Assembly (NCBI RefSeq): GCF_013076305.1
Contig: NW_027019640.1
Span: 4,810,378-4,874,377 of the forward strand
DNA: 64,000 nucleotides
DNA from: Rhopilema esculentum
Lineage: Eukaryota
Direction of reading: 5' to 3'
Each line of letters begins with the position of its first letter. Position 1 is the first letter of the stretch. A model generated the notes under the pieces. The model saw nothing but the letters and a program-made list of their open reading frames with translations. It was not told where the DNA came from and did no database searches. The position numbers and the translations under genes are program-made. Below are positions 7,154-53,400 of the stretch, one piece after another.

Positions 7154-7547
7154 ATAGTAGCGAAGTGTGACGGCACCAAAAATCTATTTTTAGAATTTCT
7201 AAAATTTGGCCGCATAATCTGAAAGATTGGCATAAAATACCTCTTATTGTGCAAAATCAGTTAGATATGTTCCAAATTTGGCGAGATATGGCCAATGGGA
7301 GGTTCAAAGTTTGCAAACAGATCACTGTTATTCTGGCCTGGTTCATAAAGTTATGAACCAAGACCAAATTACAGAGGTTTGATGGGGCAAGAGCCTGTCC
7401 TTATGTGGCCATATCTAAGCCAATTCGTAATGCCTTTAACTGAATTTGCAAATTTAGAGGTATTTCACTATACTCCTTAGGTTCTGGGATCAAAATTCAG
7501 AAATTCTAAAAGTAGATTTTAATGACGTCATCACTTTGGTATTCTAT
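7154..7547 (+). mobile_element. MITE copy 1 (about 395 bp), with TIR AGAGTACCGAAGTGTGACGTCA.. / ..TGACGTCATCACTT.GGTA.TCT
   Basis: About 85-90% identical to the copies at 22765-23160 and 62143-62536. It has roughly 28-bp terminal inverted repeats, an internal palindrome GGCCTGGTTCATAAAGTTATGAACCAAGACC, and no coding capacity. Confidence 0.8.
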
Positions 7548-17261: not shown

Positions 17262-17560
17262 ATGAGCAGCAAGCGAAACGGAGGTATCGAGTTGAAATCT
17301 GCTTTCACTATGGGGTTCGGACGTAAAAAGGAGGTGTCTTTTGCGAGATCGCGTTCAGCGACTGAAGAAGAACTAGAGGAAAAGATTCTGCGTCCTTCCA
17401 GTCCTCACATGCGTCGAAAATCGATGATTCCACATAGTGTGCCCGGTTACGTCAAATACAGACAGAAGGGAAATCAGCGCGCTAGACGCTTGCGGGCGGA
17501 TTTATTTCATTTTCTAGAAGGCTGCAGGACTTTCTATAGTGCACTTTATCATGTTTTTGT
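17262..17560 (+). CDS. Paralog A exon 1, the cytoplasmic N-terminus. It ends ...RADLFHFLEGCRTFYSALYHVFV and leaves phase 2.
   Basis: ORF 17262..17564; a GTAAGT donor at 17561. The N-terminal motif is conserved with paralog B exon 1 (RRDIFNFLEGHKTFSSRVYHHFV). Confidence 0.8.
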
Positions 17561-20500
17561 GTAAGTACCATTAATCTAACTTTTGACAAACTTATTTTTA
17601 ACCAACTCGATAAAGTAGATAGTTTAGATTTATTTCAAGTTTGATGACCGACCCGGACTAGCTGTAGGAAGGACAAACCGAATGATATTATAAATACTAT
17701 TTTAAATTTGAGTAAAAATGCTATTATTATTAAAGTTGCAGACAATACCGCCTTGAGATACTTTGTGAATTTTGAACAGAAAAATTATTTGTGCTGAGGG
17801 GTAAATTAGTTTTTTCTTTTATCAATTGAGAAAACTGAAACAGTTTTTGTCCGTCTTGAAATATTTGCAAGATATATTTACTTCTAATATAAAGAGTTCA
17901 ATTAACAATGTCTTGCAATTTTTTTTCATATTCTCATAAAATTTTACTACAAGACGATACCACAGGGAGCATGGAAATACATAGCAACCCTGTGGCCATT
18001 ACATTACACATAATTGCTTCAAATTAGAGTTACATTAAATGTGGCAAATTACATGTTACAGATTACTAATAACAAAAAACATTTACAATTTGGATGTTAA
18101 AACAAAAACAAAGACAAACTACATTGACAAAATAAGAATAATGAAAGAAAAATTACATAGGAGAGAATTTCTTGCAATTTTTAATGGAGAGGGGAGATTT
18201 TTTGTAACAATGAAGTGTAACCGTGCCTCAAATTCTATTCAATAACCCCCAAAAGTATTTTGCCCCATTTTATTCTCTTTTAAATATTGCTCAAGATTAC
18301 TGAAGGTAATTTATTCTTTCATATTGAATTGAATAGCCCCATGATAAAGAATGGCCATAGGTTTGACACAGTCTAAGAATCATAAATCTAGGCCTGTTAG
18401 TTCTGAAGATAGATCTTTTTTCAGGTTTCTTATTATACTGGCAAGCTTAGCGATGGCAATTATGTTATCAATGAATGAATTCAAAGACTCAGCAAAATAT
18501 CAGTTTGTCATGTTGAAGATTGTAAGTATTTTGCTTCTCCAGATTGTTTCAGATCATTCTTCTTTTTTATTGTCGATACAGGGCCCCCACCACGAATTTG
18601 AAAGTAGGGGGAGATCAAGGCTAGCAAAGACAGGGGGCTAAGGCTTCTTTCTCCTTTTACTGCAGCTTTAAAACTATTTGCTTCGTAAAAAAATGGGGGG
18701 CGTGGCCAACCCACCGTCCCCCCTTCCCTGTGGCGTGGCCCTGAGATATCTCAATGAGAAACTATTCTAATATTTTTTCAAACAATGCCACGAATTTCGC
18801 GGCTGCTTGGTCAGAATAAAAATTCCTATTCTTATATTGCTTCTAATGTCATTACTTGACGCTCAATGATTTGTTTCAAAATGTTCAAGGATACAGAGAA
18901 ACAATTAATCTGGGCTTTGTGATCTAATGTACATGCCTTTGAATTTTTGAATTTGGTACAGCGCATAATTATTGTTTTATCTTGATGATTTATCCAACAC
19001 GAATCTTAAATCTATTCGCATGTTTTTTATGTTCTTTTTGACAGGAATACGTTCTTCTTGGAATCTTCTTTGTTGAATATTTGCTACGACTGTGGTCTTC
19101 TAGTGCTCACGGACATTATAGCAATTTTTTAGGGAAAGTTAGATACATACTAACTCCACATATGATTCTAGGTAAGTCTGGCTCACAGTCCTTTGTTAGC
19201 TAGAGCCTAATTTCTGTTATAAATACTATCACAGTAACACTGACGTCAGTTTTGAAGGTCGCATTCAGCGATCCTCCTTCTCCCGTTTGAAAAAGTAAAA
19301 TAGTGACTAACATGTAAAGAAATATGTTTTTCAGATGACTTGTGGTATCTATGAAAGCATTGTTAATGTTCTAGGAAGAAGGAGAAAGGGACAAGAGTGG
19401 TGAATTTTCTGATCTCCTTGTACGACAGAGATTTCTTTTTCAAATTTTCAGTCAAAAAATCAATCGTGAGATAAATTCTTCCCCCAAACTTTGACACTCT
19501 ATCGTGAAGTTGAAGTAAAACCACATTTTTGCTTGAAGACAAACGAGTAGTGTCAAAATAGTTTAAGCGCAAAAGTTGTTTGTCTCTTTCCCTAGACCCA
19601 TTAAAGCACCAATTTCGTGCACCCACCGAAATTTACCAAATGTTATGACAAGTTTATCTATTGCTTTCAGATCTATTAATCATGGTTTGCTCAGTCGGCT
19701 TGATTTATGGAAAACATTTGGATCTAGACCCCAAAACAGAGAAGTAGGTAGCTCGGCTGTTTAATGACTTTTGGGTTAAATGTACCTAGGGTAACTTCAT
19801 CGACATGTTTTTTCTTCTAATGTAGATAATAGCCTTTCGTTGCCTGTTGTTTCAATCTTTAATCATACTCCGTACATCTTGTATTTGTATTTATTACTAC
19901 CTAGCTTCCAGGTGTAATTTTAAGACTCTGAGAAGCTGTGCCTATCGAGCAGTGTCTTGGGTCCTTCCTACACCTGGAATGACAGAGACCTGGCGACTCT
20001 CCACACACTAAGTGAAAGTTTGGTCATTGCTGCAAATCACACCCATAATATTGCTTAGAAATTTTGCTGAGTTTCGGGACATCAATTTTTTTCTACTTTT
20101 CGGTATCTGTTTTTCATATTCGAGAGCTAACATTGTATTTATATCATATGTTAATAATTATCACGTTCTCGTTGCAAATTAAATCAGCCTTTTTACTTAA
20201 TGGATATTAAAATTAGTTTTTTAAAATGAAATTAAACTGAATTATTTTATTTCATTTATAGATTAATGCACATGCTGCTTTTATTGCGGATATTACGAGT
20301 CGATAGACAAAATAGATCATTTGCAATGTTCAAGAAAGTATTCCTGAAGCATAGAAAGGTACGATCATATAATTACGAGACGAATATATAGCACTTTTCA
20401 ATTGAATAAGCAACCCCCGTCATTGCAGTCAAAACGTATGCACATTGAATTCAGCTACTTTTGGATGCCTTATTACCACCTCCTGCTGGTTTATAGAACA

Positions 20501-23500
20501 TTATACAAACTCCCTGCTCTAATTAGGACCCCCGTCAATTCATCATTATCCATTTTATACTATCAGCTGAAATATATATGCAATAGAATTAGCGAAATAG
20601 CCAAACAGTTTCTTAAAGGCTCCTGCGCAACTGGCATGCTTTGCGAGTACATTTTCAAAACCAGCCTTCACACAATAAAATTATCAAGATGCCGGTTGCG
20701 CAAAGCATGCCGGTTGCGCAAGAGCCGTTAAAAGCATTATTCCCCATCACTCAACCGTTCACAGTTAATAATAGACTTAGCAGCACTTTTATGATTGAGA
20801 AAACACATTGAAAATTAGCTCTACGCTGCCGATTGGACACGCAACTATAGGTCTATTGTGTAGCACAACCAATGGGAAATTCAAATGGCCAGCGAAATGC
20901 GCCAGGACATTGTGCCTTAAAAACAAATATTATTTCATGGGGGGCGACTATGGGTTAGCTTTGATACTCGACCCCCCCTGGGGTTTTTCGAGATGGAGTT
21001 CAGTCGCCCCTGGCAGATTTTAGATAAAGCCCAAAAGTGATGTATTTTCTGCTAGTAGAAGCGCAAAATAAAGATGAAGCTTCAAGTAGTCATTTTCTAT
21101 CTAAATAACCTTGCGATCAAATTGCATAATTTACATTTTGGAGAAAATATCTTTTGATTAACAATTTTCACCATTAAAATCTTCAGCAACACCTGAGAAA
21201 ATCAAAATTAGGTTTTGGTCATTTTACTGCCGACTGCAGCAAATTATCTGGCTTTCGATAGTTCGTTGATTTGCTAGACTAAATTTATCACAAAAAGTTG
21301 ACTAGACACTCAAATGTACTGTAGCTCGTTCTCTTTGGCTGTGTAGACTGGGTTAGTTCATTGCGTTTAAGACTCACTTCGTCTCCCAGGACATTCGCCA
21401 TGTTTTGTTGTGCTGTTTACAAACGACAACAACAACATTGTAATTGTAATTTCGATGTTTTCGGCTAATCATTTTAATTTGATGATTTAAATGTTAAGAG
21501 TTATTATTCTTGATATATTTTCAAGGATTACGGTACAATAGGATGAGATTATTGGATTTGTTAAAATTAATAGTATTAACGATGTGTAATTCTCTTTAAT
21601 ATAAGATAATTCGCATTACATAGTGCTGTGGCAAAGACTAGTCACACAAAAGAGACTTGAAATGAACTGGGTGCGTTCGTTCAAGGCATGCCATTCGAAA
21701 CTTCGGCATCGTTTGGTGTGGCGGTCCTGTAATAGGGTGGGTTACAGGGATAAATGGCTTGCAGCACGTTCAAAGGGATATGGCGCCAGAAAAGATATTT
21801 AATGGAGACTCAGTCTCTCAAACAACGTGTGATCGGCTCACTGACTTACCCATTGCTGGTTCACGTGTCCCCTTCTACGCTTAGCCCCTCTTAACTGCAA
21901 AATAACTCTCCATCTAACTTCCATCTATTAACCTCCAAATTTCTTTATAGGGGCTTTATTTGGGATCATTTAAAGATCTGGCTACAGCGTTGATGCAGTG
22001 TAGTTGCCAGTTCTCCTTTTAAAGTTACATAATAAACACGCACAATTTCAAATTTACATGATAAATAGCACTGTTCTTTGTGCTTGTAACATTCTATTGA
22101 TCTGACCTAGCACATTTACATCAACTGACATGGCATAGAAATGTGTGGCCATGTTGCTTTTTCACCTTGTTATATGATTCCTAAAGAGCACCGTACTGAG
22201 AATGTATTTAAATGTTATACATATTCTGTGTACACTGTAAATTGCTCATACCATTCTCTCGACCCAGTCACGGAAAAGTTTTTACATTCATGTGCGCCGC
22301 TTAAAGTTATTTCAATCTTTATCGTTTTAAGCCATTCCTCTTATCTGATGTCAAACCTATTATTTACTTTATCTTTTCATATCATCATAAACTGTTTCAG
22401 CTATAATCCAATATAATCCTATATCCCAATTTTATTATTCGGTCCATTGGTTCAAATTTTTCTAGTTGTGAAATCGATTCGTGTGAAATCAAAATCAAAC
22501 AAATAATAAGAGTTTCCTCGTATTCTTAAGCCTATGTTAATTAGACCAGGCTGTGGCTAGACAAGTACCACGTTAGCCCGGAGAAATTGCGATAGGTAAT
22601 TTCAGTTGGCTATAAGACCTGGGTGTTTAGAATCGCGATGGTAGACGAGAATCTGCTGGTGATAGTGTTGGGAATGATGCTAATAGTAATAATAATGATA
22701 ATTAAAACCAATTAGGAATCGCTCCCTATCGATATATTCTTATGTCATATAGTCCTCTCGTGCATATAGAGTACCGAAGTGTGACGTCATCAAAAAGATA
22801 TTTTTAGAATTTCTTAAATTTGGCCACATAATCTGAAAGAACGGCATAAAATACCTCTCAATATGCAAAATTAGTTAGATATGTTCCAAATTTGGCGAGA
22901 TATGTCCAATGGAAGGTTCAAAGTTTGCTAACGGATTACTGTTATTCTGGCCTGGTTCATAAAGTTATGAACCAAGACCAAATTACAGAGGTTTGATGGG
23001 GCAAGAGCCTGTGCTCAAGTAGCCATATCTCAGCCAATTCGTAATGCCTTAAACTGAATTTGCAAATTTAGAGGTATTTCATGATGCTCTTTCAGGTTCT
23101 GGGATCAAAATTAATAAATTCTGAAAGTAGATTTTAATGGAGTCATCACTTTTGCATTCTCTTTCTTGCGGTAAGAAGGGTGTTTTGTGCCCTAGTCCAA
23201 GTTTCTTAAGCCACAGCAGATTTTTAATTCTTCTAGTTTTCGATTCATATTTTCTCTATATTCCTTTTCTTAAATTTAACTGCATCTATAAGGTACCAAT
23301 ATGTAAAAATAGATCCAGAATATAAATCATAAACATATAATTCGTCTTTGCTAAAGTAAACTTACCCTTTTTGTCTAATCGATTCATATTTTCTCTATAT
23401 TCCTTTTCTTAAATTTAACTGCATCTATAAGGTACCAAAATGTAAAAATAGATCCAGAATATAAATCATAAACATATAATTCGTCTTTGCTAAAGTAAAC

Positions 23501-26500
23501 TTACCCTTTTTGTCTAATCGATACATATTTTGCAGGTACCTTGATACCGTGGCCTACATTCTGTTTTGATAGAAAGCAACCAAAATCAAGGTTACACTTT
23601 TTACTTTGCAGGAGCTGTTGACTTGTTGGTATATGAGTTTTATCATGATAATGTTTGTGGCAATTTTGGTTTACGCGCTGGAGACAGACCCGAAAGATGT
23701 CACTGTAAATAACCTTTTCAATGGATTTTACTGGGGAGTTGTAAGTATTTTTAGATATCTCTTTCAGATTGTTACAGTGGGGAGCTTATGTTGTGCAAGT
23801 TGGAAACATAGAAAAGCTATTGAGAACTCTTATAACATCCTAGAGTAGATGAATTGATTTCGTTAGGGCCCAAAGAACTTATAAAGCTTGTAATGCATTA
23901 CGGGATAATTTTTATCAATTATTGACCTAAAGCGTAAGTTTGATAAACACTAATGAAGCATTGTGCTTGAATTTGAAATGAAATAGAGGCTTTGTATCTT
24001 GTAGATTTCACTTGCCTCGATCGGATACGGAGACATAAGTCCAAACACAGCTATTGCAAAGATTCTAATATGCGTTATTGCTGTGTTCGGAACAGCTTTC
24101 TTTGCCATGCCTGCTGTAAGTTTTAATTTTGTCCTTTGATTTTTCTTTCTGCAATCTAGTAGAATTTCAGATTCTCAGTAATGATAAACAAAACATGGTT
24201 TTAAGAACTGGTAAAGCAAAGTGTGTTTGCTTGGCCAGTTATTGTGGCCCTTTTGTTAAAGACAATCGATAGATACTAATGTAGTTCAAGAATTTAGGCC
24301 ACCTGTCAATCAAGAATTGGCGAATTGCCTTTATAGACATTCTTGTTACAATCAGTCTTTCAGTTGTGACTGGCCTGCTTTTGCATCGATGTGATTCAAG
24401 GCTTTTCGAACATATTATCTAGGAGGGAAACGAAGTGCTCAGTTGCTTTTCTGCCCTTGTGACATTCCTTTGCTTTAGTCCTTAGACAATCATCTATGCA
24501 TGTAAGTGAAAGACTTGGTAGCTTCACGATTTCTTACAGTGCAGAGCTGGCATTAGATATTACTTAAAGATTTAAAAACTGGTGAATTTAGAAATTTTTT
24601 ATTTTTTAAAATTTTTATAGATTTTTTATATTGATCAATTTAGGAAGATTGATCAAGAAATCTATTTTAGGGTATAATTGGTTCTGGTTTCGCTTTGCAA
24701 GTTGCAGAGCATCAAAAAGAGAAGCATATCAACAGAAAAAGACGTCCTGCCGCAGTTCTGATTCAGGTGAAAAGCCTTCTGCATTTTACCGAATAGGAAA
24801 GGGACAGATATCTTGTCCAAAGGACTTTGCAAATATAAGGAGACTCTAGAGCATGCATTATGGTAGGCAAGGATATAGGATCTGTGAATACAGTGAAAGG
24901 GGAGAGATTGCCCTAGCTGCCTAAATACCGAAGTGATGACGTCATAATAATATATTTTTAGAATTTTTCAATTTTGACCATCTAACCTAAAAAGCAATAT
25001 AAGATAACTTTGAATGCGCAAATTTAAGTTGAATGTGTTAGGGAATGGCTGAGATATGGCCACATCAGCACAGGCTTTTTCCCGTCAAATCAATGTAATT
25101 CGGTTTTGGTTGATAACAGTAATTCGTTTCCACCCTGAAATTTTATGCCGTTCGTTCAGATTTTGAGGGTAAAAATCAGTAACCCCAGCACCCTTTGCTA
25201 CTCTGCCACCGTTCTTTGTCATATACTTTGTCAAACACTTTACCAACTGGATTTACATTAGGCCCTTGCTAAACTTCCCTCCACATAGAAAGTGGTGCAT
25301 CTCTTGCACTTACCCCTTTTTTTCTCGAAGCCTAGTTTTCCTTTCACGACTCTTCCTTAATTATCTTGTATTTATACACGACTACTTTGTTCAAAGAAGC
25401 TTTTTCTGCTTAATTTTCTTCCTTCTTTTTTAAATGACATTGTATTTGTTTTGGTGACCTCTTCTTTAAAATGAACTCGCTCTCTTGATATAATAAACCT
25501 CCTGTGAAGGGAGTTTTGCTTCCCATTTACAGTATATAAGTTACTTTTTACATCGATTCTTTCTGTTATAATCTAATTCGCTTCGTAAAAATCCTATTTC
25601 TTTTAACAGGAACCTTTTTCCTTTTGCGTATAATATTGTTCTCGTTTTACTACCAATGACCATTCGGAATCAGCCTATTTTCTTTTGAATGATTTCAAAA
25701 CATCTTAAAGATTGGTATGATATTAACTACATTTGCATATTTTCAATTTTTTTACAGAGTTTTTGGAGACGCTACGCAGGTGACCATGATCTTCATGCAA
25801 CTTGGTTGAGACATATGGTCGATAGGGAGTCTCGAAGGATCACAAAACAACGTATAATCAAGTCACAAGATGTGCTACAAGGACATATCCCGTTATCAGC
25901 CGTAACAGGTAAGTTAAATTGCCTTATACTTATTTGTTTATACAAATGATGTTCTTCCATATCGAGTGTTGTTCCAGCCAATGTTTACGATGATCTACGG
26001 CCTGCTAGGAAGATTGGCTTGCATCTATTTGCTGACATAAAACGTAAAATACGCAAATAAAATGGCTTTGAGGCATTTTGAACTGTTGTTAGAAAAGCTC
26101 AAACGATATTTTTTAGCTATGGCTCTGGTAGGACAATGTCTAGTGAGGCAGGACAGCCTAGCAGGGGCGGATCCAGATATTCTCACCATTCTCTCTTGAG
26201 AACGTCATTTCTCTCGAAAGATGAAATTGCAAAAATCAAGGTTCAAATATTCAATTTTAGTCCCAAGACAACTATTCAAAAATTAAAAAGTTTGAAAAAC
26301 TGAATTCTTAATTCTTAATTATGATTTCAGTGCAGAATTCTGTGAAAAATTAAAGAATTTTCAGTGCTGAAAAATTACAAAATTTCTTGTGTTAGAAAAT
26401 GTAGTTGATATAAACCACTTTTTGAAAAGGATGTTTCTCAGACATTTGTAAGGGCGTGGTAATTTTTTTATAAACGGGCTACGCCCATGCCGCCCCTTCT

Positions 26501-29500
26501 TTCTTGGTGAGAACATTATTTTTCTTCTGGATCCGCCTCTGCCTAGAGATCTGAACATGGCTACAAAATAAGTCTTCGATTTCGTTTATCCGTCAAACGT
26601 CAAACGAAAGTATCAAACTGGCTCTCGTTCAATGTAAGAACAATAGAAACAGATAAATTTGATTTTGAGACCCCATGTCACGATTTTAAGCGTTTTTCCT
26701 GGATATTTGTGATTTGTAGAGATTTGAACACGATTACTGTACTCAATCAGATATCCAGCTATTAAGCTATTACGTAGAACGAAGGCTATTTATAATCTTG
26801 CCAATGAAGAAGGGCGAATTTGTCGTGCAATTTGTCTTTAAGTTTATTTCAAGGATTCAACGGAACTTGTAGACACCTGCGATGATTCCAAAGTATCAAA
26901 TTTTGCCCCGTTTAGCCCAATAACCTTCAATGGATTCAATCACTAAAGATCAGGCTGATAATTATTGTACTCTGGTCAACCTTTGATGCCATTCTGCAAA
27001 TATTGCTCGTTAGTATTCTTGTAAGCCTGACGAGCAACAAAACTCCAGTTAGCTTTGTTTCCCTCGTAGTAGATTAGAATTTATTTTGAGTGATTTCTAT
27101 CTCCTTACCACCGCCTTTTTGACCACATTTGTTGCAAATCCATTTTGAGCTTCGTTTTCAAGCTGAGATTCGTCTAATCTTGACAGATCCACGTAATGGA
27201 TTGAGATTGCCAGAGCTTTTCTACGTTTTTGCAAATTAAATTATAAGCTTGCATCACGTGTGACTTTTGATGTTACCTGAGGTGACATTCATCCTTGAAA
27301 TTAGAAGATCATCTTTGCTACAAAGCGTTTAGTTTTGATCAATTTATAGCCAAAACAACGTCAATAAAGAGAACAAACGTAAAAGCTGATCGCCTTTATT
27401 GTCAGCATATGACGAGAGGGTAGAATTTGCATGATAGCTTAGGCTACACACTCCCGGGTCACGTTTTTAAATTTTCTAGAGAAAAATGCCAAAAGCTATT
27501 CTTTGCTTGCAGTCACAAAAAGTACCAACTGTAAATTTAGTTAATTACAGTCTCTTGTCTCTTTTTTTTCTCCTCTTCGTATGCACCAATAGAATTATGG
27601 AGAAACGCAATTCTCGTTTGAAAAAAGATGTTATCTTGCTTAGAAGCAAGAGTAAAAATGGCAAGTCATGAAAATTGCTCTTCAGAGAACCTGCCCAGGG
27701 ATGATATGATCTCTTTTTTCGTTTTGAAGTGTGCTCAGCGTTTATCATTAACCGTTTTAGGGAGCAACATGAGTGAGCTTCTGAGCGAGCTTCGAAATCC
27801 CTCTTTTCTCGGTTAGAAGTGCTCCTTATATCCTGACATATTTTGAGCCAATTTTGCATCTAACCAAACATCTTAAAAGAGAGTTATTTTCTGTTTTCAT
27901 TGTTTTTTGAAAGCTTCAAGCAAGCCCACATCTGTGAATGGCAGTCGATCTCAGCCAGTTCAGCTGCAAAAGTAAGTAAGGTAGCATTTTCTGAACATCC
28001 TCTTTATGTACGGTGCCAGCGTACTCTGCACAGTTCTAAAAAGCATGCAGTAAAGGATACCAATGCGACTGGTGATAAAGGGCTGCATGATGCTAGTAGT
28101 CAGCCACTATCACGTGATTTGGAAGAACTATCAGAGTATATACGTGTGGTGATAAAAGCCGTATTTTGTACTTTACCTGCACAGCCGGTGTGTTTGTGCA
28201 ACCCAATAACACAATGTTCCTTGTTCTTTGTTCAAAGATAGATGCTTGTAGACATCCCAATAACCCACAAAGAATCACAACCATGGCGTGCTATTTTCTA
28301 CATTGAGGTGAAATCAATCAGGGCTGTCGTTAGCTGTTGTGCTAAAGGGGAGGGGGTTACTTAGATCCAATTTTCCGACAAAGTGGATGAGCTGTCTTTA
28401 ATTGGTCGACAAGTCTGAAAATTTGACGACAAAGCACCATTACATTGCAAAAAGCTCCTTGTTTTATACAATGAATTTTTTCCAATGGGAAGTCCCATCC
28501 CCCACGTCCCAACGTAGTGACGACCCTAGAATTACCCTCTTTACCTTCTTTTTTCTTCTCAGACTCTCAAATCCTGTCTTCTTTCAAAGCTAAAATCGAC
28601 AGACTTGATTTACCCCCATATATTATTCTTAGCCCCTCGCTTTCTCCCCTAGTAAGGGCTTTGCTTTAGGCCTCCGGGCCCTACCTAACATTACTGACTA
28701 AATAGGATCTTCTGTTTATTTCATACCAATGAAGATGCAAAAGCTTTTAATTTTTTCTGTCATTGCTTTCATAGACTGACTCTGTCTGAGAAAAATGCCC
28801 TGCGATTCATTAGAAGATTAAAGATCAGAGCTGCATTGAAATTATTTCGGGTGAGTGTTTTATGAATATTGTGCATAAATGACAGTTCATCTTTCCAAAG
28901 AAAACAAAACTCTACGTTCATGATTATCCTAACTAGTTCCTTTTTACGCTGTCATATGTCTGGAATGCTTAAGTAAAATAGCAACTAAACTTAAGCTTGT
29001 TTTCAACAAAACTTTAATCTAAAAAATATCGAGATTAGCTGTAAATTATATTTTACACCCATAATCTGCATAGCATAAGCTGCAGTTGTGCTTATTTGCG
29101 TAAGATAATCTGCAGTTGCGTAAGATAATCTGAATGGTCTTTGAGAATTTTTAAAAAGTGTCTTGCATATGCAAATATTCTCTGAGTTTTAATTCTTTTG
29201 AAAAAGATGCCCCAGGTTAAGTGGTAAAAAGATAATATTGATAGAGAGAAGGCAGTCTATCTTACTGATAAAAAATACTGATAAAGAAGCTGGTAGTTTT
29301 AATAGATTTGGACCGGACTGTATCGAGCAGAATTCAACAGTTCTGAGCAAGGAACTCAGAGAATTCAACAGTTCATATTAGGGGTAAAGCTAACGGAACT
29401 CAACAAATTACAAAATTACTGAATGCCTGAGTATAGGGAGGTGATAACTGGCTTTTCTTGCAATTCCTTAAGTTAATTACAGGCATTTTGGGGGTTCACC

Positions 29501-32500
29501 TTAAATTTGATAGAACCGAAGTACCAATTGGTCCTGGTTTACAACTTTCATTGCTTATTCTTAAGTAATAGGTTTGTACTCTACCACGTTAGAAAACTCA
29601 GGGTCAAAAGAGCTTTCTGAAAATCTTTCGCTTGAGGCCTTTTTTTGCCCTTTGCCCCACCCTTGCTTTCCAACTTACGTCAGAGCCCTTGTTATATATT
29701 TTTCAAGTTTGATAAATGTTCATTTTGTTTTGTGCTGCATAACGACTGTTTTCTGTATTTTACACCACAACATTAATTTTAGCAAGCGCGGCGACCATAC
29801 GATGAAAGGGATATTCTTGATCAATTTGCCGCTGGTCAGGTCGAGATGTTTGCAAAATTGAGGATGATGGGTTCAAGGTAATTCTATCAAAGAATTGATT
29901 TAGAAATAAAAAAACCAACATAAGTCTATTTGATTGCTATATTTAAAAGAAGTTTCATAAGCAATGTGTTCAAAAAGGAAATTGTAGTAAGCATGCTATC
30001 TATCTAGCATTTATAAGCCATGGGAGTTATTTCACTTGCAAAGTTGTATCTATCCACTCAATACGTCATTTCATGAAAATTTCTGCACTAGAATTCAGAA
30101 CAAAATCTGAATCAACACTGTTGTCCGTGAACTCTTTTCAACAACAGAATTTAAAGCTGTACCAGGAAATGTTCTAGTAAGATATATTGAAAAATGTGTA
30201 GGAAGCATCTAATTAATTTTAGACAGGCTTTGGTCCATTGTCTTTGTTTGAGTTTTTCTTACACTTAATTAATGTGATATTTGACGCAAATGATCGAAGC
30301 CTTCCACACGACAATTCATTCCTTTTTAAACTTATCAAGTACAGAGTTTCGATGAAAAGCTTAGGCGTAGCGTAACACCAGAGTTTCAGTCACTTCTGGA
30401 ATAACATTTCAAAATATTGTTACTAATTTTTGTAATTTCAATTATATCTTCAGGGTTGAGAGGATATCTTTGACAGTCGGTAAGTGAAAGGCGCTTTGCT
30501 TTAAAGTGAAAATATTTCTAATACATGGAAAGTATCATTGAGAACTAATATACTTATCATAAGTTAAAGAACTAAAGTTCTCTTACACTTAATTAATGTG
30601 ATGTTTGACAAAAATAGTCGAAGCCTTCCACGCGACACTCCATTCCTTTTTAAATTTATCAAATACACAGTTTCGATGAAAAACTTAGGCGTAGCGTAAC
30701 AACAAACAACGGTTTCAGACCGTGCTCACTCGATGGCAAAACCGATACTGCCTTCAGGAGACCGAAAATATAAAAAAGACAGTAGCTACCCGTACCCTTA
30801 TATGATGAGCTATCCCTACCCTAGTATTCATAAATTTCTCGCACAATGTAAATAGATGACACATCTACTCTATTCCTGAACAAGGTCAATAAAATGAAGC
30901 TAATAAGCATAATGCCTCTTTTTGGCCTTATCCATGCCACTACTTTGTGCGAGGATGGCTCAGTTGTTAAAGGCACTGACTACGAAAAGTATTCAAGTAT
31001 GCTATGTTTCTGCTATTTCGTACCATCTTCAAATTTTGAGATACCAAAAACTTACATGGAGTTTCTCCGTCTTAGTCTTGTTTGCCTTCACAAAAGAACA
31101 AAGTACTTTTTACGCCCGATGTCATTTCTCTTCACAAGATGCTGATATTTTCACTCATATTGATTTGAAAAAGGCTTTCCATAGGTTTTAGGAAAAGGAT
31201 AAATAATAAAAGTCCCCATAGATAGCTTTGAATTGACATGGGCTATCCTATGATGAAGAATAGCTCCTATGTAGTGATGCAACCATTAAACGTGTGCAGT
31301 TTGAAGGATTTCTATTGTATAACATCCTCTCCTATCTTTGTATCCAAAGAGCAACATGAAACATGCTACATAGCACATCAAAAGCAATTTGTTTGACTTC
31401 AAACTGCCGCATCATCTGAACCCTCATGGCAAAAATTTGCTTAATGTATTCAATGTTTATTTATTAAACTGACGATTGCAGACAATCACATAACTAACAA
31501 CAACAAAGAAAGATATTGAAAATAAAAGATTGTCAAGTACCACAGTGCTCCCTAGCTCCCTTCAAAGAAGGTATTGAAAGCGCTATTCTTTAGTCAGAGA
31601 AAAGACAACCGATTTTGTTGATTCTAGGCAACAGTCATAATTTTTATAAAAAATCATTATGACTTTTAAGATATTGATGTGATCGAATATTTGTTTGCAT
31701 TCTCATTCGAATATTTTTTGCTCATTATTCGTTGCTTAACAGTTAAGTTTTTATCTAACTTATAAAAACATGGTGACTTTTCCCCTTTCTAGATCGACAA
31801 ACAAAGATAGTCGGTGAATCCACTGGCAGAGTTAGTCAGCTAGAAGAGGAAGTGAGTTATATTTTTAACACACGTGACCATTCTTGAACATTTGGGTCGA
31901 TGTAGAGACGGACTGTACTGTTCTATTGTGGAGGGGATGGCTGCTAGCAAGCGGCAGGGTGCTCGTTGAACCTACTTTCAATTATACTGTTTTGGCATTA
32001 TCTTTTTCTGATATATTTATTAGTACTAGTACAAAAAATGAGCTACAGCTTCTGCTCAGACACTAGCAGTTTTCAGCCTTCCAAACTCCAAACCAAACCA
32101 AACGGAGTATCCCAAAATAATGGCAGGCGGATCCAACACCGTTTACCAAATGTCATTAGAGTGAAAACCTGCATGAAAGAACCTGTGATTTTCTGTACCA
32201 GGCTGAAGTGGCTCGTTTACTTTGCAAAGTGGTTTTATCTTTAAGATGCTTAGCTGGCAAAAACAACCGCGAAGCTCTTAGTCTTCAGTAACCTTTTTGG
32301 GGTTTTCTAGACACATCCATTATCACGTTTCTTCTTTCGTGTTTACACCAAGAATAACCTTTACGAAAATGCTCACAAGAACTTCAACAGATGCCTTAGA
32401 TCTTAGAATGCCTAATGCTAGACAACTCGCACAGCACAAGTGTACTAATATAACTGTTACATAATGCTTTATACTCATTAATTCTAGCCTCATTCTTAGG

Positions 32501-45782: not shown

Positions 45783-46068
45783 TTGTTAAGTTATGTTTTG
45801 TTATTCTATGTTATGTTATTTTATGTTATGTTATGTTATGTTATGCCATGTTACGTTACGTTATGTTATGTTATGTTGTGTTATGTTATGTTATGTTATG
45901 TTATGTTATGTTATGTTATTTTATGTTGTGTTATGTTATGTTATGTTATGTTATGTTATGTTATGTTATGTTATGTTATGTTATGTTATGTTATGTTATG
46001 CTATGTTGTGTTATGTTATGTTATGTTATGTTATGTTATGTTATGTTATGTTAATGTTAGGTTATGTT
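45783..46068 (+). repeat. Pentanucleotide microsatellite (ATGTT)n, about 55 units with a few variant units
   Basis: Direct reading. It produces three overlapping repeat-artefact ORFs with MLCYV iterations. Confidence 0.95.
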
Positions 46069-47406: not shown

Positions 47407-50400
47407 GTAAGTATGGACTCATTTTCTTCTACTTTCTTAAAACAGTTATCAATCTGGCTTTCAGAGCCCGGAAATCGTTACTGTCAAACGGTTACAAGAA
47501 GGCCAATGAAATTTACGGAGATGGAAGTGCCACGCCCGAACACCGCCTTATTTCCTTCTTTTGAGAAATGTTTCCAAAGCGTGAGTCGAATGGCCGGTAG
47601 AATAATGGACGCTTTTCTTGATTCTGCTTAATGCGAATCCCAGGCCCTGTCTACGTTTTAAAAGATTAAGAAACGGTTGTACGTCCCCTTTTAAAAAAAT
47701 CTTCAACTAAATGGAAATGAAATTATTAGGACTCTTATTCAGGAAAATGCGTTTTCATCAAAATATGAATTAATCAAAAGCTTGTAAAAACGTTTTATGA
47801 GTTTGCTTTTTTACTTAAGCGAATCACAGTTTTTTCGTCTACAAGGACACGTATATTTTGTTTTTAAAACTAGTTTTGAAAACAGAATATGGCATCAAAT
47901 GTAAATAACAATTTCTGATTCAATGCAACTTTAGCCATTTCTGTTGATTTGATGTTTATTGTGCTATTTTTCTTTCTTTTAGTATATTCATCATTCTTAG
48001 CAGTATTTTGTTCGCAGTTTGCTCCACTCTAAAGGACCAATCAGACACATTTTCTATTCGTATGCGTAATGTCACACTAGGATATGTAAGTTAGCCGTTT
48101 TCGGCATAGATTTTATCTTTTTTATACCGGGTATCTTTCTGTATCAAAATAGCGGTCTGCAAACAAAATTCTACCTTCCATCTGCTGAACCCATCCCAGT
48201 GGATTATTCCGATATCGACTTGTCATTTTTCTCATTTTCTTGATGTCAGAGCTCAGAGAAACCCCTCAACCATCCCATAGATAAAGACAATTTAATAGCC
48301 CTATCTGAAGTCCTCCTGTAATAAGATTTAATTTGATGAAATCACAAGACTTCAACCAAAAACGGACTTTGACCAAAAACTGTTGATCTCAGTTTTGCCT
48401 TGTCGATTTTTGATTAGTAACAGGTCGAAGTTAATCGGATTTCAATCTCTTCTGTTGGCTATGGTTAATGAACTTTTTTCCCAGTTAGCTTGTGTTGGCT
48501 TATATCATTACGTTTAACGAAAATAGACACTACTTTTTAAATGCGTTTTTGAGCAAATCAATTAAAAAAATTATATCCTTGTCTAAAGAAAATGCGCTTT
48601 TTGTATAACCTTTTTCTATGTTCTAGGAATTCTGTTTATTCTTTATTTTCTCCATCGAATATGGCCTACGAGTATGGTCCTGTACTGCTAATAGCAGCTA
48701 CATTAGCTTCCAGGGAAGACTCCGGTTTATTCGCCGACCGATTATGATTCTTGGTAAGCTAGTTTTATTAATAAAGATCAGAAGTATGGGGTGAAGTGTA
48801 GGACCTTTTGAAACTACACATCTTCCGGTCTGTTTTTTAGTTTCAAAGTTATTTTTAACCACGATAAAGAGACTCCTTAAATGTAAACCATTCACATGGC
48901 TCGAAAAGAGTAACCTTCTAATGAGAATTCAAGCTGTAAAAAAGTGGATTGTCTAGGCAACTTAACTACTATGGTAAAAAAGTCGCATATTTTATGTATG
49001 TGTTCATTAAATTTATAATTGCGGACAATCATCAGGACAGCCACATATGAACATGGGAGACACAGTAAATTTGATCGGGATTGGGAAACTGAACGTGAGA
49101 CAGTCAACAGAAAAACACGGGGAATCAAATTGTTCCTAGCGTAATATACTTATCCGTTAGTGATTTTGGAGCTATGCTAAACAGACACATACTCCAATGT
49201 CAGGTCTTACTATTTGCTAAGATCGACACATAAATTCTTTATGCCAAACAGACCAAACTTTTCATTTCATTGGCACTGTTTACAACATGCATGGGAAAAG
49301 TCTCCTTCCACTTTCCATTTTCTTCGACATAGGAAGTGTTTTGACATTAGCAATTTGAAAATTTGCCCCCCCCCCCTCTACCCAAATGTATTAGCATAAT
49401 ATGACACCAGTAAAATACCACTTTAGATGGCTATTGTTACACTCATTTATTATGTCCCCCTTCCCCCAAACAAAAAGTTGTTCCTCGGTCTTGCGTAGAT
49501 ACCAACTGCTGTGCAAATGTAGATCATTTGGAAATGTTGATGGTCAAGGAAATGGGTAACGCTTTTTTCCTTTTTCAGATGCAGTCACTATACTTGCTTC
49601 GGTGATATTGATTGTGACCTTGGCATTGAATTTCCAAACTGATGAATATCGGTGATTATGCGAATTTTTATTCGATCCTTCTTCTCGATGACTTATTCGA
49701 TTGTTATTCGTGATTTGAGCTTAAATAAAAACGTTTTGTTCATTTAAATAAATTTGCTGAATTTATAGCCCACATTATTGGATTACTGAATTTGCATTTA
49801 TATATTTTCATCAGCAAAGAAAGAGGTATTTGTATATGTAGATATGGGGTATTTGATGAGAGGGTGGGGGTGGGGTTGCTTTCAACCCCATTTTCTTTTG
49901 TATTAGCCCTTCAAAATTTTTCCTTGGTCTCACAATTATCTGACAGCAGGTAATATGGCAACAAAGTTGCCTTCATTTATGTCTTCACTGATATAAGGCA
50001 CGACACTGGCTTGGATATTCGGTCATTCATTGTGTCAATGTTGGAGTAGGCAACAAATAGAAAAAAACATAAAATTATTTTCGAATTTCAATTTTTCCGC
50101 TTTTCAGTATTCTTACAAAATAGATTTTACCTTGTCCCATATGCAAAGGCAGAACCATCTTTTACTCTATAGTTTATTTCGCACGTAGGGTTCTTTAAAA
50201 AAATCGGTAAGCAAAATTGCAGGTTATCAGGAAAGAGGGTGTTTGGGGGCACATCTGTGGGTAATTGCGTTCTTCGTTGATATTCTAGTAGAATATTTTT
50301 TTGGCCTTTTTTATGTACCAATTATTGTGTTGTGTAGTATTTCATGGTACTCTCCAGGGGCCTTTGTTATGGTATTATTCACGTTTCTATTTATAAAGTT

Positions 50401-53400
50401 TTTACCTATCTCATATTTTGCTTTTATTTGAGATGGAGTGATAGGATAAGAAAAGATACTTTTCAGCCAGTTCTTTATTGAAAATTTTTGTCTAAATTTG
50501 GAAGTCATAGCATTTTTTTTCTGTCATTGTAGGTTCTTGTTCCTACTTCAGCTGTTTCGTGTTCTAAGAATCGACAGGCATCGAGGTGCATTTGCTACCT
50601 TTCAGTGTGTTGTCCGTAATCATTTCAAAGTAAGTCTTCCTTCAACTGATTTAATGTTCTGTTAGTTACTCTAAATTTATTGTTAGTTCAATAAATTCAT
50701 CGTCCAGTTCTTCTTGCTCTTCAGACAGGCAGGATTTAGGGAATTTTCGTACATGTCTATTGTGTTTGTGGTTGAAATTATGTTATTCAAATAATTTTTT
50801 TTCTGATAAATTTATCAGTGACCATTGACACGCATATAACAGATAAGTACCTCTTTTGTAAACCCAATACCCAAATTCTAGCGATTTCATAAGAATAGAG
50901 AACGATGATTCATTCTGGAATGATCCAAACGTCATACTGTCGTCAAACCCGTGATTGAAACGTCGTTTAGAGCAGGAGGATCTTACTTCTAGCCAAACCT
51001 TTCATTTGTCTTTCAAGTATTCATGATTTGCAAAGAAATGTGTGGCACAACCACAAGAATCACTAGTGACTATCTATAATTCCATGTGTAACTAAGCACG
51101 GAAAAGGAAATTAAGACATTCTGTAGCTGTTGTCATTAGGCAACCAAAAATCTAAATTATAGGAATATCATCGATTGAACGTACAAGATTAATTCCTTTT
51201 CATCGATTGTCCTGGCCAGTCTTAAGTCTCAGCTGAAAGTCAACTGGTGTCATCATGGAGGCTGGGGGTGTCTGTGAAAGCTGCCTTGATACAAAGCGTA
51301 TCTAATAGAACCATAACAATGAAGATACTAGATCAGTAAACACCTAGTAGCTATCTTGCTCAATGAGGAAATGTTGTGTAAACCATTGAAATAGAGAAAT
51401 TGTCAAGAAGCCAACGAGGATGCCCCTTATTTTTCCTGTCTGCTTTTATGGCAGAAAGTCTTCTGAGTCTTTCGCAATATGGGGTAGTTTCATGATAAAG
51501 TCCGTAAATGTTTGCATAGGCTCTGCTGAAAATATCTGAGAATTAATGATTTATTTGATGAAGACCATATATTCCAACGTGGACTTGATTCATAACAAGC
51601 AGCAATTGATAACAAACAATTTTTCCTAACAAACAACAATTAACAGCTCGCTGTCTACCAGAATTTTGAAAGAGGCAACATTCTTTTCATCCCACATTGT
51701 TCGACCATTGACTGTTCTTCATCAATGGTCACGAGGTTAATGGCAAACACTTTTTGCCTTTTTATTTCTTATTAGTTTTATTTTGTTTAATGATACAGCT
51801 CCTAGATATATTTTTATTAAAACAGTTATTCAGGAGTAGCTTGAATGTTCGTTGTCGTGAAATTACGTTACCTTTACAGGAATGCTTGAATTAAAAGAAG
51901 TAAATTACGTCATAACATGAATTAACAATCACTTGCCTAGAGCATTTTCCAGGTCTATTTAGCTACGACTGTGACTTTTATCTCTTAGCAGTTTGATGAA
52001 TTGTCCTTTAAAAACATGATATTCCCTACTAACAAGTAAATCAATAACCCTAAACTAATAAGCTTTTGGTTTGGCAGTTGTACTAGCAGACATTAAAAGG
52101 TTTTTCCTACTTTCGGATTCAGATAAGCTGTTCTTCCAGTCCTTCTTGTTTTTATCTAAATTCAGAGTGAAATGGTAGAATTCTGTCAGTGACGCAAGTG
52201 AATCTAGGCTCATTAATTGTCATTTTCTTTTAGGAACTCCTCACTTGCTGGTATATGGGATTTATCGTTATTATGTTTTTGAGCTATATAACATACGCCG
52301 ATCCGAGTCATACGTCATCAAAGGGGACTGTTTCTGACTTGGCTAATGGATTGTATTGGGGTGTGGTGAGTTATGTTTGTCCCATTTATCTTGCTTTACA
52401 AAGCCAATGAATCTCTACTTTGCATATGTTATGGCAAATTATTTTAAGTAGATAAGATTACAGAAGGAAAGATTATTGGTCTTTTCTGATGTGTACAGCT
52501 CATGTGACTTACTTTTTGGCTTGTCCTGAGCTGCATAGCGATACGTAATGCCCGTTTTTCAGCATTCAGAGATCACGAGTTTTCCTTACAAATACGATTC
52601 CAGACTCTGACCCAGACTTGGGTTACTGCTCTTAATTTCTTCCTTCCTTCCTTCTTAATTTCTTTTAATTGCCTTGTTTTTTGGATAACTGTGGTAAGTC
52701 GTCAACCAGAAATAAAAAAAATTTGCGAAATCTCTTGAAATGGAATACGAAATATTCAGAAAAAGAATTTTTCAGGGCAAGAGTATTTTGGTACGGTCAA
52801 GCAAAGGGATTGGGAATAACCCCTCAAATTCTAATTTGATAAGCTCTGATTTGTAGGGAAGTTTTGATGTAGTTGCTATGCAGGTCATACACGCCATTTG
52901 TCAAACTCTTGCCTACCGTATTATGCCATAAACCAACCTTTGATGCCATAGAACACCAATGAGTACCACAACACGCCTTACCCACCTACCTACCATACCA
53001 GCATAGATTTCAATACGTAAGCTGCGATGTTGATTGTGTTTTACAAAGACCACTTTTCGACGTCGCTGTTATTATTGTCAGTCAGTACCCCGACTCTATA
53101 AACATTTCTCAATCATGGAATGCCAAGACTTTATACTATGAATAATATTTACGTATTTAGCCCTCGCAAAGACCGCCGGTTTTTAATTTTACTGGCGTTG
53201 GACGTCATAGTTCATGTGTGTTGGGTCTTTTAATTTCGCTGGGCTCAGTGTTTGAATAAAAAGACATGATAAACCTTTTTTTGTATGTTTAAACCCTGTA
53301 TGTTCACACGAGAGTTGTTATGACAACAGTTGCGAAAGCTTGAAAACTGAAATGAAATTAAAGAATGGAAACGAATGTTTCTCGGTTAAAAATTCTTAGA

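Follow-up and report, generated by a model that had tools for sequence, protein, structure and literature searches.

An alanine–serine pair ahead of the IGYGD filter of ReKCNQ2a, a KCNQ/Kv7-type subunit of the jellyfish Rhopilema esculentum

A 64,000-nt stretch of Rhopilema esculentum DNA (the window, to which all positions given here refer) carries two KCNQ-type genes, and the pore of the first, paralog A, reads A-S-I-G-Y-G-D where that of the second, paralog B, reads T-T-I-G-Y-G-D. This raises the question of whether the Ala-Ser pair belongs to a genuine channel and, if so, what it means for K+ selectivity. An earlier note on the locus had described the filter as non-canonical and proposed a functionally specialized or modulatory subunit. 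We consider it probable, with good confidence, that the exon encodes the end of the pore helix, the selectivity filter and S6 of ReKCNQ2a, an intact and selectively maintained KCNQ/Kv7 α-subunit that is most likely K+-selective.

Nine exons of paralog A were modelled, all on the forward strand, with AG/GT borders and a reading frame open throughout. Exon 1 (17262–17560; GT donor) contains the start codon, the N-terminus and the pre-S1 region (…RRLRADLFHFLEGCRTFYSALYHVF) and is identical to the published Resc_012489-T1. S1 is encoded by exon 2 (18425–18521; AG/GT), in the same phase as exon 47983–48085 of paralog B; S2 and the S2–S3 linker (…GKVRYILTPHMIL) by exon 3 (19045–19171), equal in its 127 nt to exon 48627–48753 of paralog B; and S3 by exon 4 (19671–19743), which has 73 nt, as does 49579–49651. 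Exon 5 (20262–20358) comprises S4 and the S4–S5 linker, (K)LMHMLLLLRILRVDRQNRSFAMFKKVFLKHRK, as judged by HMMER alignment to the S4 of KCNQ4 and by comparison of cnidarian KCNQs. According to the gene model, S5, the turret and the start of the pore helix (ELLTCWYMSF…NGFYWGV) lie in exon 6 (23612–23740), and the S6 gate and post-S6 segment, also aligned to KCNQs, in exon 8 (24671–24766). Exon 9 (25758–25908) encodes helix A with an IQ-type calmodulin site (SFWRRYAGDHDLHATW…), where the Pfam IQ match is weak (E 0.009). Further downstream are a pre-helix-B exon (28775–28850; LTLSEKNALRFIRRLKIRAALKLFR), fully identical (100%) to the sequence in the published alignment, and the helix B exon (29783–29877; QARRPYDERDILDQFAAGQVEMFAKLRMMGS). 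Paralog B, spanning 47030 to beyond 61556, follows head-to-tail, about 30 kb downstream. Exon lengths of 127, 73, 97, 111 and 96 nt, together with the phases, agree between the two paralogs.

Both genes have been described before. The nine-exon model of paralog A is identical over 393 residues to ReKCNQ2a (Resc_012489-T1), and its helix B region likewise matches, while that of paralog B is identical over 408 residues to ReKCNQ2c (Resc_012490-T1), both in File S1 of PMC9989356 (Genome Biol Evol 2023;15:evad009). That work recognizes three KCNQ2-type paralogs in this species (2a, 2b and 2c), catalogues and places ReKCNQ2a, and names KCNQ2a in its phylogeny. Paralog A is already known, being catalogued, named and published as a sequence; the published model probably derives from the same assembly as the window. 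The term “selectivity filter” has no occurrence in the text of PMC9989356, and the filter of ReKCNQ2a is never discussed there.

The filter lies in exon 7 (24005–24115, forward strand; ISLASIGYGDISPNTAIAKILICVIAVFGTAFFAMPA), the homologue of exon 53904–54014 of paralog B. It is a clean exon of 111 nt, or 37 codons, in phase 0 at both ends, flanked by ...cttgtAG upstream and GTaagt downstream. It opens with ATT TCA CTT GCC TCG ATC GGA TAC GGA GAC, that is I-S-L-A-S-I-G-Y-G-D, so that the sequence given in the earlier note is confirmed codon by codon. The two unusual codons are GCC for Ala (24014–24016) and TCG for Ser (24017–24019), each differing by a single base from a Thr codon (ACC and ACG, respectively), and GYG starts at 24023. 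HMMER aligns the region column for column with KCNQ4 (...wgvisLASigygd... versus ...wgtitLTTigygd...). By alignment, the Ala occupies the position of human KCNQ3 A315 and KCNQ1 T311, and the Ser that of KCNQ1 T312, Shaker T442 and KcsA T75. The note was right that a Ser replaces the Thr of the innermost K+ site, and that this has happened in a KCNQ-family pore. The GYGD that follows is intact, as is the pore-helix context. Paralog B keeps the Thr pair (ACA ACC, 53913–53918), its pore exon (53904–54014, forward strand) reading VSMTTIGYGD, as the note had it, and being identical to Resc_012490-T1.

The Ala-Ser pair is real and not a chance motif, because the assembled protein matches human KCNQs far above the next family: the best PDB matches of paralog A are KCNQ4, 5, 2, 3 and 1 (E 1e-58 to 1e-51), followed by Kv2.1 at 2e-15. 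Segments S1–S6 align to the KCNQ4/5 structures, and Pfam reports Ion_trans at 85 bits (cut-off 25) and Ion_trans_2 at 47.8 bits. The KCNQ post-S6 segment (PAG-I[LI]GSGFAL-(K/Q)V … RRPAA-x-LIQ, followed by helix A) aligns gap-free to KCNQ4/5. The helix B domain (KCNQ_channel, PF03520) is detected in paralog A at 38 bits and in paralog B at 45 bits (cut-off 25), and the helix B pattern of the family, RPYD-x-x-D-[VI]-[IL]-[ED]-Q-[YF], is present in paralog A across exons 28775–28850 and 29783–29877. A tblastn search with human KCNQ C-termini located helices A and B only; beyond helix B, only the first residues, VERISL (30458–30472), of the region of the coiled-coil helices C/D were located. A coiled-coil tail was demanded of “complete” sequences in PMC9989356, which include ReKCNQ2a. 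Like paralog B and the human KCNQs, paralog A has an intact S6 PAG gate and GSGFAL segment, and it conserves the retigabine-site Trp, helix A with its IQ site and helix B. It lacks the degenerate S6 activation gate that PMC9989356 uses as the marker of silent or regulatory Kv subunits (R-subunits). A query of a large protein database with the S1–S6 core returned prokaryote-type Kv channels only (22–32% identity) and no animal KCNQs; among the 120 such matches listed, the filter residue is Thr in 118 and Ser in 2.

Comparison with the jellyfish sequences aligned in PMC9989356 separates the histories of the two residues. All three listed KCNQ2a orthologues have the Ser: the pair is A-S in Rhopilema, T-S in Sanderia (SmKCNQ2a, SLTSIGYGD) and T-S in the box jellyfish Chironex (CyKCNQ2a, SFTSIGYGD, a transcriptome sequence). 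Its occurrence in Sanderia and Chironex as well shows the Ser to be an old, fixed trait of the lineage and no sequencing error, a possibility that the earlier note had raised. The Ala is found in Rhopilema alone among the three and, since the other two have Thr, arose independently of KCNQ3. A further sequence in the supplement carries LTSIGYGD. Every KCNQ2b, KCNQ2c and HvKCNQ2 sequence in the alignment has TTIGYGD. As a general rule for KCNQ, however, this motif, valid for paralog B, does not stand, human KCNQ3 having ATIGYGD, the medusozoan KCNQ1 clade L-T-[IV]-G-Y-G-D and an Acropora KCNQ T-T-T-G-Y-G-D. ReKCNQ2a groups with SmKCNQ2a and CyKCNQ2a rather than with the 2b, 2c or KCNQ1 clades; on the alignment of PMC9989356 it shares 72% identity with SmKCNQ2a, versus 45–50% with 2b/2c and 46% with KCNQ1. 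In Sanderia the 2a and 2c gene identifiers are 016943 and 016944_45, and the tandem pair appears to be conserved.

The S4 segment of paralog A, which the earlier note took as a further mark of divergence, is real but only partly peculiar to this gene. The string KLMHMLLLLRILRVDRQNR runs across the junction of exons 19671–19743 and 20262–20358, and the gating-charge positions R1, R2, Q3, R4, H5 and R6 are occupied by K, H, L, R, R and R. The second arginine is also missing in paralog B and, by comparison of cnidarian KCNQs, in every medusozoan KCNQ2-clade channel; KCNQ2a's own feature is the H at R2 and the L at Q3, found in both scyphozoans. In human KCNQ2/3, loss of R2 leaves channels constitutively open and causes epilepsy. 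At the same position in KCNQ3, R230C shifts the G–V relation by more than −100 mV and R230K shifts it to the left by more than 45 mV. The K-H-L-R-R-R segment would be expected to shift activation of ReKCNQ2a to negative voltages.

Could one or both odd codons stem from a sequencing or assembly error, or from a rare allele, with TT or TS as the true state of the protein? The single-base distance from Thr codons speaks for this, and the Ala is supported by this assembly alone, the identical published model probably having the same source. However, the Ser occurs in two other species, in one of them through a transcriptome, the exon shows no other irregularity and its frame and splice sites are conserved, and Ala is naturally viable at this position, as in KCNQ3 and in two bacterial channels with ASVGYG. 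We regard such an error as very unlikely. It is scarcely credible that paralog A is a decaying duplicate whose filter changes are noise under relaxed selection. Rhopilema–Sanderia identity is somewhat lower for 2a than the 76–78% of the other paralogs, so that 2a evolves slightly faster, but values this close argue that it is not decaying. Moreover, no stop codon interrupts the modelled exons, whose splice sites are canonical, conservation extends to the gate, the retigabine-site Trp and both helices A (IQ) and B, and a distinct orthologue has been retained in two classes and is expressed in Chironex. On the preferred reading, that of an intact and maintained α-subunit, KCNQ2a acquired the Ser as a fixed change prior to the split of Scyphozoa and Cubozoa, and the change from Thr to Ala came later, in Rhopilema only, reproducing KCNQ3 A315.

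What the pair may do to the current is a matter of analogy. Weakly selective HCN channels differ at the position of the Ser (C-I-G-Y-G), and Shaker T442S has a changed conductance order, so an Ala-Ser pore might be weakly selective, as in HCN or non-selective cation channels. This is highly improbable, given that Ser retains the hydroxyl, that GYGD and its pore-helix setting are preserved, that SK2 and hERG, both established K+-selective channels, carry Ser naturally (ITFLSIGYGD in SK2, PDB 8v2g; SLTSVGFGN in hERG), and that human KCNQ1 T312S gives ordinary K+ currents. The same channels back the earlier suggestion that K+ selectivity may survive. The side-chain hydroxyl of Ser would still coordinate K+ together with the backbone carbonyl; we infer that selectivity is retained, and the Ser would be expected to act on gating or filter stability and on the handling of Rb+ and NH4+. 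The Ala invites a different proposal, namely that ReKCNQ2a is, along the lines of the earlier note, a specialized, KCNQ3-like modulatory subunit whose homomers pass little or no current owing to the Ala-Ser at the base of the filter, and which works mainly in heteromers with the neighbouring TT-type paralogs. In its favour, the Ala sits exactly at KCNQ3 A315 with the equivalents of I312 and F344 conserved, the 2a–2c tandem pair seems to be shared with Sanderia, three KCNQ2 paralogs co-exist in jellyfish (PMC9989356), and KCNQ2a has its own S4 residues and a T-P instead of [KR]-P in the S2–S3 linker. Nevertheless, neither Sanderia nor Chironex has the Ala in its orthologue, so that any KCNQ3-like defect would be confined to one species instead of characterizing 2a as a lineage; the S6 gate is intact, whereas degenerate gates serve as the marker of silent Kv subunits; and KCNQ1 T312S is wild-type-like. 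We consider this proposal possible but unlikely. By itself, the Ala would reduce the current of homomers, a loss that a TT-type paralog could make good by co-assembling. A broader idea is that jellyfish independently evolved a KCNQ2/KCNQ3-style division of labour. KCNQ2a, with its old Ser and, in Rhopilema, the KCNQ3-type Ala and an S4 lacking R2, would then be a dedicated partner of the adjacent TT-type KCNQ2b/2c, adjusting how well the heteromers conduct, how stable their open state is and over which voltages they work; this strikes us as doubtful. A pseudogene, a sequencing error at the Ser and a loss of selectivity were rejected on the grounds given above.

As a discovery the locus has little value, the gene being named and published and both residues having well-studied natural counterparts, namely KCNQ3 A315 in the case of the Ala and SK and hERG in that of the Ser. 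The result is a rather ordinary one, because the gene is catalogued, the Ser is conserved, conservative and present in working channels, and the Ala mirrors KCNQ3. For channel biophysics and evolution its value is modest: KCNQ2a offers a natural experiment, with Thr-to-Ser fixed at the innermost (S4) K+ site of a KCNQ pore and the KCNQ3-type Ala added in Rhopilema, and the medusozoan KCNQ2 clade as a whole lacks the R2 gating charge. These channels could show how general the filter-stability and R2 rules drawn from human mutants are.

Among known systems, human KCNQ3 (ITLATIGYGD) is the counterpart for the Ala. It is likewise a KCNQ-family channel (E 2e-53) and has the Ala at the last pore-helix position, and its partner residues have equivalents in GVISLASIGYGD and AFFAMPAG of ReKCNQ2a, where, as read from the sequence, I312 corresponds to the I of GVISLA and F344 to the second F of AFFAMPAG. 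Homomeric KCNQ3 currents are small, and A315T or A315S yields about 15-fold more current; a KCNQ3-like dependence on heteromers is possible for ReKCNQ2a by this analogy. Unlike ReKCNQ2a, KCNQ3 retains the Thr of the innermost K+ site, and its S4 segment has the full R1, R2, Q3 and R4. For the Ser, SK1–3 (KCNN, L-S-I-G-Y-G-D) share the identical S-I-G-Y-G-D and a non-hydroxyl residue before the filter, although they are an unrelated, Ca2+/calmodulin-gated family without a functional voltage sensor or the KCNQ C-terminal domain; since they are established K+ channels, SIGYGD is compatible with a working one. EAG, ERG and ELK channels (KCNH, S-V-G-F-G) also have a natural Ser at this Thr position, as do many cnidarian EAG-family sequences, but with GFG rather than GYG, in a different family of non-swapped architecture. 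Natural Ala-Ser before [IV]-G-Y-G occurs in GiK of Giardia (S-I-A-S-I-G-Y-G-D) and in the two bacterial Kv-like proteins (A-S-V-G-Y-G), which are distant, uncharacterized and not KCNQ; in full-text literature searches, the Giardia paper was the sole match to ASIGYG and TSIGYG gave no match. Finally, Shaker T442S and KCNQ1 T312S have the Thr-to-Ser change at the same filter position and are both functional, although they are laboratory mutants in TT backgrounds whose phenotypes disagree in size. Shaker T442S strongly stabilizes the open state, with open times 100–1000 times longer, and conducts in the order Rb>NH4>K, whereas KCNQ1 T312S gives near-normal currents with inactivation of 27.8% versus 25.1% in the wild type (not significant) and a normal Gmax response to Lin-Glycine. 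The effect of the substitution depends on its context, and the size of the phenotype in ReKCNQ2a is therefore not predictable from either mutant.

The pore exon of paralog A, the first of the two tandem KCNQ genes, spans 111 nt of the forward strand (24005-24115), lies between ...cttgtAG and GTaagt, and reads ISLASIGYGDISPNTAIAKILICVIAVFGTAFFAMPA. In its selectivity filter, the codons for alanine (GCC, 24014-24016, forward strand) and serine (TCG, 24017-24019, forward strand) each differ from a Thr codon by a single base. A second pore exon, that of paralog B (53904-54014), reads VSMTTIGYGDVSPVTGLSKIVLCIFALMGAGFIAMPA. These exon sequences bear out the filters given in the earlier note, ISLASIGYGD for paralog A and TTIGYGD for paralog B, and its string for the S4 voltage sensor of paralog A is also accurate.

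The Ala-Ser filter is real and the gene that carries it is already catalogued. Gene models were obtained by comparing the two halves of the window by tblastx, followed by inspection of splice sites. The DNA is eukaryotic (G+C about 35%), and nine exons were modelled per gene, all bordered by GT-AG introns, with identical intron positions and phases in both paralogs and equal lengths for several exons (127, 73, 97, 111 and 96 nt). The paralog A model matches the solved human KCNQ4, 5, 2, 3 and 1 with E-values from 1e-58 to 1e-51, against only 2e-15 for Kv2.1, the next family. Pfam identifies Ion_trans in this model and, over its cut-off, the KCNQ_channel domain in the helix-B region of both genes. 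A cnidarian Kv channel survey at genome scale (PMC9989356) lists the exact proteins in its File S1, both belonging to Rhopilema esculentum, a scyphozoan jellyfish: paralog A is ReKCNQ2a (Resc_012489-T1) and paralog B is ReKCNQ2c (Resc_012490-T1). Identity is complete over the 393 and 408 modelled residues, respectively, and extends to the helix-B exons. According to the survey, the cnidarian ancestor had one KCNQ, KCNQ1 and KCNQ2 separated in Medusozoa, and two later duplications yielded KCNQ2a, 2b and 2c; nowhere does the survey mention the selectivity filter.

The gene ids of KCNQ2a and KCNQ2c are adjacent in Rhopilema (012489/012490) and also in Sanderia (016943/016944_45), which suggests that this local cluster, with its 2a-2c tandem arrangement, is old; the KCNQ2b id follows that of 2a at +6 (012496) and +20 (016963), respectively. 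A repeat of about 380 bp, likely to be a non-autonomous transposable element, is interspersed in both orientations through the introns of both genes and upstream (22748-23166, 24923-25115, 61096-61472, 62135-62513 and about 7171-7379), with translated identity between copies reaching about 80%. A pentanucleotide microsatellite, (TGTTA) repeated about 57 times with 89% matches, occupies 45784-46068, between the last located exon of paralog A and the start of paralog B.

File S1 gives the name KCNQ2a to only three sequences. The filter region reads ...FYWSVVSLTSIGYGD... in SmKCNQ2a of Sanderia malayensis and ...FYWGVISFTSIGYGD... in CyKCNQ2a, a transcriptome contig of the box jellyfish Chironex yamaguchii, which places a transcribed serine in the latter. 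The serine is thus present in 3/3 sequences, spanning two cnidarian classes, and the alanine only in Rhopilema (1/3), with Thr in the other two; of the ASIGYG motif, whose conservation the earlier note had proposed to check, the Ser is kept and the Ala is not. TTIGYGD is the filter of every KCNQ2b, KCNQ2c and Hydra KCNQ2 sequence in the supplement of the survey. Parsimony would place the T-to-S change on the KCNQ2a stem and the T-to-A change later, in the Rhopilema lineage. Judging from the three orthologous sequences, the KCNQ2a lineage is marked by a conserved serine at the inner K+ site, which is an unreported detail and a small gain in knowledge. Non-standard filters also occur elsewhere among the cnidarian KCNQs of that supplement: L-T-[IV]-G-Y-G-D in the medusozoan KCNQ1 clade (Re/Sm/Cy KCNQ1 and HvKCNQ1a/b), with Leu at the position of KCNQ3 A315, and T-T-T-G-Y-G-D in Acropora (AdKCNQ), with Thr replacing the usual Ile/Val. 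One further File S1 sequence, not named KCNQ2a, has L-T-S-I-G-Y-G-D.

The gating-charge positions of the S4 voltage sensor, aligned to KCNQ1 and KCNQ4 in the order R1, R2, Q3, R4, H5, R6, read K H L R R R in ReKCNQ2a (20262-20358), R H L R R R in SmKCNQ2a, R S Q R K R in CyKCNQ2a, R M Q R R R in KCNQ2b, R F/L Q R R R in KCNQ2c (paralog B, 50533-50629) and R Y Q K R R in HvKCNQ2. The R2 arginine is missing in every medusozoan KCNQ2-clade channel compared, and is retained in the scyphozoan KCNQ1 clade (R R Q R R R). Divergence of the S4, as had been noted, is borne out, but it does not single out paralog A, since the loss is common to the whole clade, paralog B included. In human KCNQ3, neutralising R2 gives a constitutively open channel (PMC6363412); R230C moves the G-V curve by more than -100 mV, and with R230K the leftward shift exceeds 45 mV. 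By analogy, medusozoan KCNQ2-type channels would activate at very negative voltages and may be open at rest, and this clade-wide loss seems of greater interest than the filter change. In the S2-S3 linker (19045-19171 in A, 48627-48753 in B), the KCNQ2a orthologues have ...YILTPH, ...YLFTPH and ...FLVTPH; a basic residue precedes the linker Pro (IRKP, IRRP, ARKP) in medusozoan KCNQ1, 2b, 2c, HvKCNQ2 and human KCNQ4/5, and the basic-Pro motif is absent from this stretch of AdKCNQ. This basic-residue-rich KCNQ region may have a bearing on PIP2 or calmodulin coupling.

With sequence, gene structure, family membership, published-gene identity and conservation pattern established, functional consequences can be inferred. 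ReKCNQ2a is most likely an intact KCNQ alpha-subunit. A sequencing error, for which a single base would suffice at either codon, is excluded for the serine and unlikely for the alanine. A pseudogene is poorly supported, as Rhopilema-Sanderia identity on the trimmed alignment of the survey is 72% for 2a and 76%, 76% and 78% for 2b, 2c and KCNQ1, indicating sequence evolution only slightly faster than in the other paralogs. Loss of selectivity is also poorly supported: serine retains the hydroxyl that builds the innermost (S4) K+ site, so K+ selectivity would be expected to persist, with any effect falling instead on the stability of the filter or the open state and on how Rb+ and NH4+ are handled. 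A dedicated modulatory subunit, suggested by the earlier note from filter and S4 together, is possible, but both orthologues have Thr instead of Ala, the PAG gate is intact, and human KCNQ1 T312S has a mild phenotype, being functional with inactivation indistinguishable from wild type (27.8% vs 25.1%) and an unchanged response to a PUFA analogue. In an intact ReKCNQ2a alpha-subunit, the Rhopilema-specific alanine would be expected, by analogy with KCNQ3, to lower homomeric current, and heteromers with TT-type paralogs could offset this effect.

Thr before [VI]-G-Y-G is the rule, as had been supposed, being found in 118/120 bacterial Kv-like homologues retrieved; the other two have Ser, both as A-S-V-G-Y-G. 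Exceptions are nevertheless familiar: TTIGYGD is not general in the human KCNQ family, since human KCNQ3 (PDB) reads WWGLITLATIGYGD. The small homomeric currents of KCNQ3 have been attributed to A315, with A315T or A315S increasing current about 15-fold; modelling ascribes this increase to hydrogen bonding with I312, by which the conducting filter is stabilised, and gives F344 as the other partner. As in KCNQ3, equivalents of I312 (GVISLA) and F344 (AFFAMPAG) are present in ReKCNQ2a. At Shaker T442, only Ser and Gly were tolerated among the substitutions tried. Both filter substitutions have close natural precedents: besides the Ala of KCNQ3, SK2 (ITFLSIGYGD) shares S-I-G-Y-G-D with ReKCNQ2a, Ser is also natural in hERG (SLTSVGFGN), and a Giardia channel reads SIASIGYGD.
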